From Escherichia coli (GTDB lineage Bacteria; Pseudomonadota; Gammaproteobacteria; Enterobacterales; Enterobacteriaceae): a DNA stretch of 1,113 nt. A program made the position numbers. Below, piece by piece: positions 1 through 1,113 of the stretch. The stretch lies in NCBI RefSeq assembly GCF_003334255.1, contig NZ_QOWU01000173.1; one strand, 5' to 3'. The stretch's first letter is position 1; the number at the start of each line of letters is the position of its first letter.

Positions 1-1113
1 TTGAAATACAGGTTAGTCAGATATGTCAGCAGCCCAAACAGCAGACTCCCCAGCACGCCTATTGCCGCCCACTGAGACGGGGAAACCCTGTCCAGCAACT
101 GCAGGAACCAGTAGCCCGTTCCCACCGCTGACGTGGTGTATGACACACCTGTTGTGATTTTTTCCATCTGGTACATACCCCGTCTCCCGTACTCGGAAGC
201 TCACAACAACAAAAGGGCCACCAGCTCTTTACTGATGGCCCTGCCCCGCCGTTACAGCATTGTGCCCGGTTCGGGTTGTGTGTCTGTCATATCCGTCACC
301 GGTGACTCCGGCTGAATATCACCATTTTCCGTGGTGACATCTTCCGCCTGTGGTTCCGGAAGCAGTTCCGGGGATGGTTCCGGCTGTGCACCAAGCAATT
401 CATCCAGAATTGAATCCACTTCTGCATCAAGACGCGCCTCAAGGTTCTGCCGAAGTTGCTGTTTCAGTGCGCTCCGGACTTCTTCAGAGCGCAGGACTTC
501 CTTCACTGCCTCAGCAGTGACCAGCGATTTTATTTCTGACATAGGATTTTCTCGTTGAAAGGGGTTATTAAGAAGGTTGTTCCGGAATGAGTGGGGCTTC
601 TGTTTTTGCTCCGGCTGACTGACTGGCGCTGATTTTCTCTGCGGCCCTTTTATCAATCTGCCTGCGCCAGAAATCGCGCACTGCCCTGTACCCACCCGAA
701 AGAAGATACAGCACACAGACCGCCGTACAGAAGTACAGCATCACCTGATGAACAAATGTCATAGTTTCTTACCGTTATGGTTGACAATGAGAACTGTTTT
801 CATTTAAAAACCGATATACGAAAGCATCTTTTCTTTACATTCTCCATTGGGATTACCTCCGCCAGCTTCCGTTCCTGCCGCTGGCGGCTTTTTTTGCCGG
901 TTATGATGATGCCCGGCTTTCGTTAACTTTGACTGTGACCGTATCAAGCAGTACCGGATACGTCGCTTTTGCCCCCGTGATATCTGTCAGCGTCAGCGTA
1001 TCTGCTGTAAAGCCATCATTTGTCCACATCACAAGGTCAAACGCCGTCTGCTCTGTACCATCAATCACCGGAACGACTCTTTCGCTGTTATTTCCCGCAA
1101 AGCGGAAAACAAC

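Follow-up and report, generated by a model that had tools for sequence, protein, structure and literature searches.

The window analysed here, that is the whole stretch of 1,113 nucleotides of Escherichia coli DNA, corresponds to the late region of a prophage of the lambdoid, Stx type. Along the minus strand it carries the 3′ end of a gene for a NanS-p-type SASA/DUF6645 sialate O-acetylesterase (902..1113), then, across a spacer with a candidate antisense small RNA gene, a gene of the DUF1378 family (568..762), a DUF826 gene (252..542), an intrinsic-terminator-like hairpin with a 12-bp stem and a T-rich tract (204..242, the hairpin at 214–242) and the 5′ part of a class II holin gene of the phage 21 S type (PF04971; 1..176). 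The two incomplete genes were identified from RefSeq (for the esterase, the annotation under the match) and from Pfam on homologous loci, the hairpin by a terminator scan. The holin gene runs off the window and has two in-frame starts, M1 at position 176 and M4 at position 167. The PhiR5_1/PhiR12 isolates match the window at 97.6–98.7%. The same synteny recurs across the prophages of E. coli and Shigella and in Stx phages, and prophages of these two genera supplied all close homologues of the DUF1378 protein. Placed between Q/pR′ and S-R-Rz, the DUF1378 gene has the same direction as these, and the endolysin gene is located 3–4 genes downstream of it in this locus type. A consensus scan of the window revealed no sigma-70-like promoter.

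By its length alone the 64-aa open reading frame of DUF1378 is unremarkable, because the 1.1-kb window contains 16 open reading frames of at least 20 aa. It was registered exactly where the earlier note had placed it, on the minus strand from ATG 762 to the stop codon at 570–568, with the product MTFVHQVMLYFCTAVCVLYLLSGGYRAVRDFWRRQIDKRAAEKISASQSAGAKTEAPLIPEQPS. That it is a real gene under purifying selection follows from its end-to-end family matches and from the pattern of substitutions. In hmmscan residues 1–59 aligned to positions 1–59 of the 59 in Pfam DUF1378 (PF07125; E = 5.1e-35, 119.9 bits), and phrog_494 was matched with E = 4.8e-37, so that the protein is a full-length member showing no difference from the family; as expected for it, the product is about 60 aa long, has one N-terminal hydrophobic helix and is encoded by an enterobacterial prophage. 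Among 29 distinct alleles pN/pS was 0.19 in the frame of ATG 762 versus 2.3 and 2.5 in the two other frames, with 10/10/30 variable columns at the three codon positions, and in comparison with homologues of about 60% identity pS was 0.80–0.84 and pN 0.21–0.23. It was by synonymous and non-synonymous changes that the earlier note had proposed to judge its start and frame, and both were borne out. RefSeq annotates a “DUF1378 family protein” (WP_000142785.1) at the matching position of a locus 99.6% identical at the DNA level. Ahead of the ATG there is a weak purine-rich stretch, GGTAAGAAA (765..773, minus strand), which may act as a Shine-Dalgarno sequence, and the motif ATAACGGTAAGAAA upstream of the same codon is kept in most of the variants displayed in a 38-variant upstream alignment.

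There is a barely perceptible chance that the true product is instead a 154-aa open reading frame starting from GTG 716 in an overlapping frame, the 64-aa frame being untranslated. In most relatives no stop codon interrupts this longer frame on its way from DUF1378 into DUF826; phage 933W has it annotated as L0106 (148 aa), and among PHROGs it is captured as phrog_8301. However, in this frame pN exceeds pS, and in a simulation 13–25% of synonymous recodings of the DUF1378 gene left it open; its openness is thus a by-product, and on these two grounds the frame was rejected. In addition, the ATG of DUF826 and the GAGAAAA motif upstream of it are conserved, the start context GAGAAAA-N4–5-ATG being kept in diverged loci, and two genes rather than a single one are called here in the current RefSeq annotation. 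The reading frame is thereby settled, and the fused annotation of the L0106 type, as in 933W, corrected.

The spacer between the esterase and DUF1378 genes (139 nt) is filled by the candidate antisense small RNA gene (815..897, plus strand), with TTGACA at 781–786, a hairpin at 859–887 and a run of seven T at 889–895. Its position and orientation match those of the PasA sRNA of EPEC E2348/69, where in prophage PP2 the esterase gene and PasA are followed by the holin gene directly, without the DUF1378 and DUF826 genes. The Rfam match to Esr41 is weak (20.5 bits at a threshold of 102, E = 0.35), and this identity was rejected; no relative appeared at E ≤ 0.01. An A-run with a hairpin and a TTGACA-like box are retained in the spacer of the esterase-linked block when it is found in P2-like and apparent Mu-type prophages.

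The description of the product as a small single-pass membrane protein with hydrophobic residues 3–21 is supported by prediction, from the Kyte-Doolittle profile, the distribution of charges and an AlphaFold2 model. The best 19-residue Kyte-Doolittle window is located precisely at residues 3–21 (mean 1.91), and the apolar stretch extends to about residue 24. The model is a single helix over residues 2–50 with pLDDT of 81–87 in its transmembrane part, and the protein may be divided into a predicted transmembrane helix (approximately 3–24), a basic juxtamembrane helix (25–50) and a disordered C-terminus. The tail had been called highly basic. Its eight K and R residues, seven of which fall in the 19-mer quoted at that time, were counted correctly, but residues 25–64 also include five D and E, which gives a net charge of +3 (whole-protein pI 9.2) and makes the tail moderately basic. 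Among 23 diverse members of the family the N-terminal flank has a charge of 0 or −1 in every case, and the tail a net charge of +2 to +5 in 22 and of 0 in one (L096). Since this distribution fits the positive-inside rule, the protein is predicted to have N-out/C-in topology, newly supplied here for DUF1378, its short tail, basic and helical, being in the cytoplasm and almost nothing on the periplasmic side. The most conserved part of the family is the transmembrane segment with its cytoplasmic boundary, LLYF(C/S)TxV(C/S)xLYLx(S/A)GG(Y/W)xxIRxY, while the distal tail varies freely, which suggests some specific interaction within the membrane.

The DUF826 gene (minus strand) begins 25 nt after the stop codon of DUF1378 and encodes a protein of 96 aa (phrog_311, E = 9e-37; “DUF826 domain-containing protein” in RefSeq). 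With 22 D and E residues versus 7 K and R its pI is 4.05; the N-terminal half is helical and the tail is acidic and proline-rich. The two genes were present together or both absent in 64 of the 65 E. coli-type loci having enough downstream sequence, and no discordance was met in 72 holin loci. Prophages with nearly the same holin carried the cassette of both genes in 15 of these 72 cases and lacked it in 57. Thus, in E. coli the pair is all-or-none and at the same time optional, and this strict pairing is newly shown. The presence of the cassette showed no link to the type of endolysin in the 72 holin loci: it occurs both with the 177-aa lysozyme and with the RrrD type, and loci without it likewise include either. 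In two distant phages (L091 and L095) a relative of DUF1378 is followed by an acidic protein of 75–76 aa that is non-homologous to DUF826. Comparison of the acidic open reading frames of L091, L095 and L096 with DUF826 gave no homology (scores of about 4 bits or lower), so that they are at most its analogues. In several lineages, namely P2-like prophages, a group adjacent to Rz and a group associated with tail-fibre genes, DUF1378 has no acidic partner at all. The functional pair with the acidic protein that the earlier note had considered therefore gains from the all-or-none occurrence in E. coli-type loci and from the acidic reading frames of L091 and L095, but it is not universal.

The family is small: 38 representatives among 1.84 billion were found, the scan of species-representative genomes returned 2 loci (2 of 100,044 species genomes), and a locus search with a four-sequence alignment of distant members gave 4. 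In several phage types unrelated to one another, relatives of 27–60% identity have a holin, endolysin or spanin gene as their neighbour, and this recurrent link to lysis cassettes is newly shown. DUF1378 follows an Rz-like spanin in L090; the series spanin, holin, SAR lysozyme and DUF1378 is found in L091, beside genes for a terminase of T7 type and a tailspike; and in L092 the order is muramidase, holin, spanin, DUF1378. The gene lies between an endolysin and an Rz-like spanin in L093 and follows the endolysin in L095, being directly adjacent to an endolysin gene in L091, L093 and L095. In loci L096–L098 the order is holin, endolysin, Rz/Rz1, DUF1378, where genes overlap by 4 nt or are 12 nt apart, and phage EKP1 has Q, a class II holin, lysozyme, Rz, one open reading frame and a DUF1378 relative. 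In L185 DUF1378 and a DUF826-like gene precede a holin of another family (PF16080). P2-like prophages have the order lysozyme, lysB-like, lysC-like, esterase, DUF1378, gpR. Two other surroundings are different. One clade (L099–L101) is located after tail-fibre assembly genes, beside a methylase of Dam type by its motif or a putative acyltransferase-like open reading frame, and at an apparent Mu-type right end the block of esterase, DUF1378 and DUF826 is situated between a gene of the resolvase/invertase family and mom, remote from the lysis genes. Within the half of the family that is closer to E. coli, DUF1378 always follows the NanS-p esterase; the distant members have no such gene. The neighbouring holins belong to different families (PF04971, PF16080 and phrog_13249). 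The sites occupied by DUF1378, before S, after Rz and after tail-fibre genes, are also classic insertion sites of cargo genes, or morons.

In the earlier note the position of the gene beyond the terminator and outside the holin transcription unit was used as an argument against a role in regulation of lysis, and this argument is not supported. In lambdoid phages Q-modified RNA polymerase reads through the terminators between pR′ and S, and for a gene located co-directionally between Q/pR′ and S the position of a terminator does not speak against such a role. Background on this read-through in the late region is available for Stx phages (PMC10462455), and by analogy the hairpin at 204..242 would be passed in the same way. 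The argument is further weakened by a hairpin terminator directly upstream of S in a prophage without the cassette, as well as by distant relatives lying in or at lysis cassettes. In diverged loci the stem of the hairpin is preserved by different sequences.

Based on these data we assume, with a rough probability of 0.4, that DUF1378 is a late-expressed, N-out/C-in protein of the inner membrane that serves the lysis module as an accessory without being essential. Its synthesis would most likely fall in the late part of the lytic cycle, from the Q-antiterminated pR′ transcript, which would also carry the holin, endolysin and spanin genes, and at the inner membrane it may adjust the timing or the efficiency of firing of the pinholin/SAR-endolysin system. 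In phages of the E. coli type it probably acts with the acidic cytoplasmic DUF826 protein, perhaps in physical contact. In the window and its relatives the gene is immediately upstream of S-R-Rz and co-directional with them in the late operon, and the neighbourhood in other phages points to, without proving, an optional helper role in lysis. On the other side, the cassette is dispensable, being absent from 57 of the 72 loci with nearly the same holin, and the linkage could be to the NanS-p esterase rather than to lysis. The list of roles given for this architecture in the earlier note (toxic, lytic, exclusion, holin regulator) was generic; it is narrowed somewhat towards the lysis module, with nothing proved. 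Neither the DUF1378 nor the DUF826 protein had a match in NCBIfam or PADLOC, sequence search against solved structures gave nothing significant for either of them (best E-values 1.5–2), and no sequence homology of DUF1378 to known lysis regulators was found. In the literature both families are mentioned in passing as of unknown function, and no function is assigned to them; Pfam and PHROG identifiers retrieved nothing, and the locus tags L0106, Z1467 and ECs1208/1209 only irrelevant matches.

The closest parallel in layout is Mu gp25, or releasin (DUF2730). This N-out/C-in lysis protein is 99 aa long and has four residues in the periplasm; its RR/RK motif is located where membrane and cytoplasm meet, its cytoplasmic domain is anionic, and it is encoded within five genes of the endolysin (PMC9239132). 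DUF1378 shares with it, by prediction, one N-terminal transmembrane helix in the N-out/C-in orientation with 2–4 periplasmic residues and a basic junction; both have (S/A)GG near the cytoplasmic end of the helix, then an aromatic residue and the RR/RK motif, and both are encoded in a late operon a few genes from a SAR endolysin. Unlike the 73-aa anionic cytoplasmic domain of gp25, the tail of DUF1378 is about 40 aa long with a net charge of +3; the separate DUF826 protein, which is missing in other lineages, would supply the anionic part if it is a component of the system. Moreover, Mu has no holin, whereas the phages with DUF1378 do. The Pfam scan revealed DUF1378 only, and homology to gp25 was rejected, since hhalign of the DUF1378 family alignment against gp25 gave a probability of 0.16% over 8 columns. 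By analogy DUF1378, as tether and basic junction, and DUF826, as the anionic portion, would reproduce the releasin layout in two pieces. That the two proteins are indeed a two-piece counterpart of releasin, or else a new kind of antiholin, we regard as unlikely; the membrane tether would then present the anionic partner at the inner membrane and set the time of SAR endolysin release or of firing of the phage 21-type pinholin.

Lambda S107, phage 21 S71, T4 RI and RIII and P1 LydB and LydC resemble DUF1378 in being non-essential and located in or beside lysis cassettes. T4 RIII is a soluble cytoplasmic modulator of lysis. Such modulators may be soluble and cytoplasmic, as P1 LydB, or small membrane proteins (PMC9025707). 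Unlike S107 and S71, DUF1378 does not arise from the holin gene by a dual start, and it has no sequence similarity to these regulators. A canonical dual-start antiholin of their type is ruled out, as DUF1378 has a gene of its own, which lies about 390 nt ahead of the holin start and is divided from it by DUF826 and the hairpin terminator. A holin-specific partner is doubtful, because the neighbouring genes encode holins of different families, and a transmembrane helix binding one particular holin is disfavoured by the differences in partner holins and endolysins between lineages. Qin YdfD, one of the small toxic single-pass prophage proteins of E. coli, and the single-gene lysis protein phiX174 E belong to a size range of about 60–90 aa; the sequence of their N-terminal transmembrane helix is important and their C-terminal part is basic, so that they resemble DUF1378 in size, helix and basic C-terminus. 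They act alone on host targets, while DUF1378 is found in multigene lysis cassettes and is dispensable.

The accessory role has to be weighed against other explanations, of which the most substantial, though still on the unlikely side, is that DUF1378 is a cargo membrane protein unrelated to lysis. The esterase, the sRNA and DUF1378, with or without DUF826, would then form a mobile accessory module of moron type, which may block the entry of superinfecting DNA, modulate a host inner-membrane protein or assist the NanS-p esterase, and adjacency to lysis genes would merely reflect favoured insertion sites at module borders. The presence of the cassette in 15 and its absence from 57 of the prophages that share a holin, the terminator downstream of the pair and the tiny size of the family, confined to phages of Enterobacterales type, agree with this explanation, as do the movement of the block with the esterase into P2-like (between lysC-like genes and gpR) and apparent Mu-type prophages (between the resolvase/invertase-family gene and mom) and the separate clade found after tail-fibre assembly genes beside the Dam-type methylase or the acyltransferase-like frame. 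Terminator and polymorphism are indeed typical for morons, but the promoter expected for them was not detected by the consensus scan of the window, the spacer being filled by the antisense sRNA-like gene. Besides, several phages have the gene overlapping or adjoining a spanin or endolysin gene by 4–20 nt in the manner of an operon, in L093 it is inserted between endolysin and spanin, and distant members have no esterase altogether. The T7-type terminase and tailspike layout of the L091 contig suggests a virulent podophage, in which a function protecting the lysogen would make little sense.

Small size, one transmembrane helix, a charged C-terminus (all by prediction) and the location in lysis cassettes are generic hallmarks of holins, and P1 is an example of a phage in which several proteins of holin type can act together (PMC9025707). 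DUF1378 might therefore be a second, single-helix holin or pore former of class III-like type with a charged C-terminal tail. We consider this improbable, since a separate holin, here of class II, is already present in every interpretable locus, the cassette is dispensable, as its absence from 57 of 72 loci shows, and no Pfam or PHROG holin family was matched. The charge-complementary toxin and neutraliser suggested in the earlier note, with DUF1378 depolarising the membrane or blocking division and DUF826 binding the basic tail, would be consistent with the strict co-occurrence in E. coli-type loci, with the opposite charges (pI 9.2 versus 4.05) and with the non-homologous acidic 75–76-aa reading frames after the DUF1378 relatives of L091 and L095. 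This explanation is highly improbable, as DUF1378 lacks the acidic partner in the P2-like, Rz-adjacent and tail-fibre groups, neither an own promoter nor an autoregulatory layout was found, the gene of the putative toxin comes first, PADLOC gave no match and the tail has a net charge of only +3; the obligate two-gene unit with its own regulation that characterizes toxin-antitoxin systems is not observed here. The position of the gene is no argument for or against toxicity, which would not be selected against in a late lytic operon.

DUF1378 is a family catalogued in Pfam, PHROG and RefSeq but never studied before. By the settled frame, the predicted topology, the pairing with DUF826 and the link to lysis cassettes an anonymous DUF is turned into a testable candidate accessory of lysis; if it is plain cargo, the result is an ordinary one. 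In many Stx phages and related E. coli prophages the pair is located between stx/nanS-p and the lysis genes, and in Stx phages the timing of lysis governs the release of toxin and virions. If the two proteins do act as a releasin in two pieces or as a new kind of antiholin, they would be a determinant of lysis timing in Stx phages and thereby of the amounts of toxin and phage released per induced cell.

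The 64-aa open reading frame (ORF) running on the minus strand from position 762 to 568 translates into the very sequence quoted in the earlier note, and its hydrophobic residues 3–21 coincide with the best 19-residue hydropathy window (Kyte-Doolittle 1.91). The product matches the whole Pfam model DUF1378 (E = 5e-35) as well as phrog_494 (E = 5e-37). For 29 distinct alleles from 82 loci pN/pS was 0.19 in the frame starting at ATG 762 and above 2 in the other two frames, variable sites of these alleles being distributed over codon positions of the DUF1378 frame as 10/10/30. Against homologues of ~60% identity pS reached 0.80–0.84, so that synonymous sites are nearly saturated, while pN was only 0.21–0.23. 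Judged by its family matches and substitution patterns, this ORF is a real gene. A competing minus-strand ORF begins at GTG 716 (154 aa) and corresponds to the 148-aa L0106 frame of phage 933W and to phrog_8301. It is open in most relatives, but its pN exceeds pS and 13–25% of random synonymous recodings also leave it open; it was therefore rejected as a gene and is a by-product of the amino-acid composition encoded by the real one. This frame fuses DUF826 with the 3′ two-thirds of DUF1378, the latter being read out of frame (252–716 on the minus strand; 5253–5699 in the 933W locus L002, where it is L0106). It persists as phrog_8301, a 139-aa profile, and some gene calls retain it too (132 aa in locus L084); by the same measures it is an annotation artefact. 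The start of DUF826 (GAGAAAA, 4–5 nt, ATG) is kept even in diverged loci.

The acidity ascribed to the partner encoded at 542..252 of the minus strand (96 aa) was borne out (22 D+E versus 7 K+R, pI 4.05). As for the DUF1378 tail, its 8 K+R were counted correctly, but “highly basic” is too strong for a segment with 5 D+E and a net charge of +3 (pI 9.2). Across 23 diverse family members the charge of the N-terminal flank is never other than 0 or −1, and in 22 of them the tail is net +2 to +5, being 0 in the remaining one. By the positive-inside rule, these charges predict an N-out/C-in topology with only ~2 periplasmic residues. AlphaFold2, run with the 23-sequence alignment, gave a single continuous helix at residues 2–50 and a disordered C-terminus (pLDDT 81–87 in the membrane part, mean 68). 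Conservation is best in the membrane helix and at the cytoplasmic boundary, LLYF(C/S)TxV(C/S)xLYLx(S/A)GG(Y/W)xxIRxY(I/F)(R/K)xK, whereas the distal part of the tail varies freely. Distant members have serine in place of the two cysteines, and the protein has no lipobox.

Matches to the window come from E. coli prophages and from Stx-converting phages, with hits in 347 phage records (best 98.7% identity, full length) and in 2448 of 5426 complete E. coli genomes (best 99.6%). Its genes are all encoded on the minus strand. In a RefSeq locus of 99.6% identity a SASA/DUF6645 carbohydrate esterase of NanS-p type is followed by “DUF1378 family protein”, “DUF826 domain-containing protein”, “class II holin family protein”, lysozyme and lysis protein, with an antiterminator Q gene upstream; in 933W the matching stretch lies between pR′-stx2AB-L0105 (nanS-p) and S-R-Rz. 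The family is small. A word-indexed search returned 122 DUF1378 clusters, of which those with a named source all derive from E. coli or Shigella. When 1.84 billion representatives were searched exhaustively with a profile (E ≤ 1e-3), 38 proteins emerged, and one genome per species (100,044 species) yielded two loci, those of Cedecea neteri and Mixta tenebrionis. Within the half of the family closer to E. coli, DUF1378 always comes after the NanS-p esterase, and the order DUF1378, DUF826, class II holin was registered in 64 of the 65 loci with sufficient downstream sequence and in homologues of ~60% identity. Among 72 holin loci close to the holin of E2348/69 prophage PP2, where the order is esterase, PasA, holin, both genes were present in 15, neither in 57 and only one in none. 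The two genes thus form a unit that is optional; this cassette occurs alongside both endolysin types.

The terminator scan placed a 12-bp hairpin with a T-tract between DUF826 and the holin start (204–242, minus strand; the T-tract hairpin also given as 242..214), its stem being maintained by differing sequences in diverged loci. The earlier note took it for the end of a separate unit and hence as speaking against a canonical antiholin. A case against a lysis role in general is not supported by it: the whole region between Q/pR′ and S is co-directional, and a comparable hairpin immediately precedes the holin in L083, a prophage lacking the cassette. In established lambdoid biology such terminators do not stop Q-modified polymerase. 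Read-through of this kind has been described for Stx phages (PMC10462455). A consensus scan across the window registered no sigma-70-like promoter, and the 139-nt spacer 5′ of DUF1378 is occupied by an antisense sRNA-like gene. The terminator is therefore not evidence against a lysis-related role; in the uninduced lysogen it would keep transcription of upstream cargo from reaching the lethal lysis genes. A small conserved stem, CUUCCG...CGGGAG (~185–203, minus strand), overlaps the holin Shine-Dalgarno region and is possibly a translational control element for S. The window holin has two in-frame starts (MYQM EKITT..., 167–176, minus strand). The antiholin extension of phage 21 (MKS) has one basic residue, whereas the three-residue N-terminal extension of the window holin has none. 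Among loci L103–L182 its upstream ATG is kept in 15/15 cassette-bearing versus 21/57 cassette-less loci, a difference confounded by linkage; cassette-less loci lacking it mostly have ATA instead.

The candidate sRNA gene of the spacer between esterase and DUF1378 occupies ~815–897 of the plus strand (region 781–897), with TTGACA at 781–786, a hairpin at 859–887 and a T7 run. Stem sequences vary across variants but the hairpin is kept, and the TTGACA box is conserved. The candidate shares position and orientation (convergent between esterase and holin) with the EPEC sRNAs PasA and PasC, its place being exactly that of PasA, antisense between the esterase and the next gene. Rfam gave a weak full-length Esr41 match for the window candidate (20.5 bits, E = 0.35) and none for its relatives. 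Late transcripts through the spacer would be complementary to this RNA ~50 nt 5′ of the DUF1378 ribosome-binding site. Upstream of the esterase, the STnc100 sRNA family is represented in related loci by as many as four copies in tandem (L082 695–1674; L089 1603–2716; L002 8024–8229), one of which adjoins AsxR in 933W; a Storz-lab preprint relates this family to PasD.

Outside the E. coli-type group DUF1378 stands between an Rz-like spanin and terminase (locus L090), between endolysin and an Rz-like spanin (L093), after muramidase, holin and spanin (L092), or after holin, endolysin and Rz/Rz1 with a 4-nt overlap or a 12-nt gap (L096–L098). In L091, a contig with T7-type packaging genes, the order is spanin, holin PF04971, SAR lysozyme, DUF1378, a 76-aa acidic ORF and tailspike; in L095 endolysin and DUF1378 are followed by a 75-aa acidic ORF. 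These acidic proteins (L091 4184–4414, L095 567–794; pI 4.7–4.8) are rich in Ala, Glu, Pro and Val, end with a short basic patch and resemble DUF826 in size, charge and position, homology to DUF826 being undetectable. In L185 DUF1378 and a DUF826-like gene precede a holin of another family, PF16080. In the L099–L101 clade DUF1378 comes after tail-fibre assembly genes, and its neighbour is either a methylase that is of Dam type by its sequence motif or an acyltransferase-like ORF. The block of NanS-p esterase, spacer and DUF1378, with or without DUF826, was also found outside lambdoid phages (L189/L190 1309–3674, L183 1268–3970, L187 1362–3961). In P2-like prophages it lies between lysC-like and gpR genes (lysozyme, lysB-like, lysC-like, esterase, DUF1378, gpR), and at an apparent Mu-type right end between a resolvase/invertase-family gene and mom (esterase, DUF1378, DUF826, a 66-aa ORF and, further on, mom). 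The spacer keeps its A-run, hairpin and TTGACA-like box, and the whole block seems to travel together. Phage EKP1 (L191 1922–3761) has Q, class II holin, lysozyme, Rz, one ORF and a DUF1378 relative; enterobacterial phages typically carry such a lambdoid-style cassette, and the recorded Bacteroidota host (Elizabethkingia) may therefore merit re-examination.

Five of the seven context types adjoin lysis genes, and all observed positions are also common cargo sites. In the best-supported reading, which is tentative (probability about 0.4), DUF1378 is an accessory of the lysis module, which would be late-expressed, located in the inner membrane, non-essential and modulatory, and which in E. coli-type phages would probably partner the acidic cytoplasmic DUF826. 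The main rival, somewhat less probable, is that the gene is cargo whose membrane protein serves some other purpose (superinfection exclusion, action on a host membrane target or a connection with the esterase); the cassette being optional, the travelling esterase block and the clade next to tail-fibre genes speak for it. A toxin/neutraliser pair is unlikely, because DUF1378 frequently occurs by itself and lacks its own regulation.

Among described proteins, the nearest analogue of such a lysis accessory is Mu releasin gp25, a 99-aa N-out/C-in protein with four periplasmic residues, an RR/RK motif at the membrane junction and an anionic cytoplasmic domain, which is encoded at most five genes from the endolysin and is needed to free a SAR endolysin held in the membrane by its basic N-terminus (PMC9239132). 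DUF1378 and DUF826 look like this layout split in two pieces, and endolysins beside DUF1378 (E. coli-type loci, L091) have SAR-like N-termini with basic residues, e.g. MSAKIKYGLSAAVLALIAAGASA. However, the DUF1378 tail is itself basic while the cytoplasmic domain of gp25 is anionic, the endolysin of L092 is a soluble muramidase, and no sequence homology between DUF1378 and gp25 was found. The specific releasin-like or antiholin-like version of the lysis-accessory reading is improbable.

The DUF1378 protein is an ordinary, already annotated family member and thus not new as an object, and the searched literature gives no function for it. What is added here is the decision on its reading frame, the predicted topology, the pairing statistics and the tie to lysis cassettes across phages.
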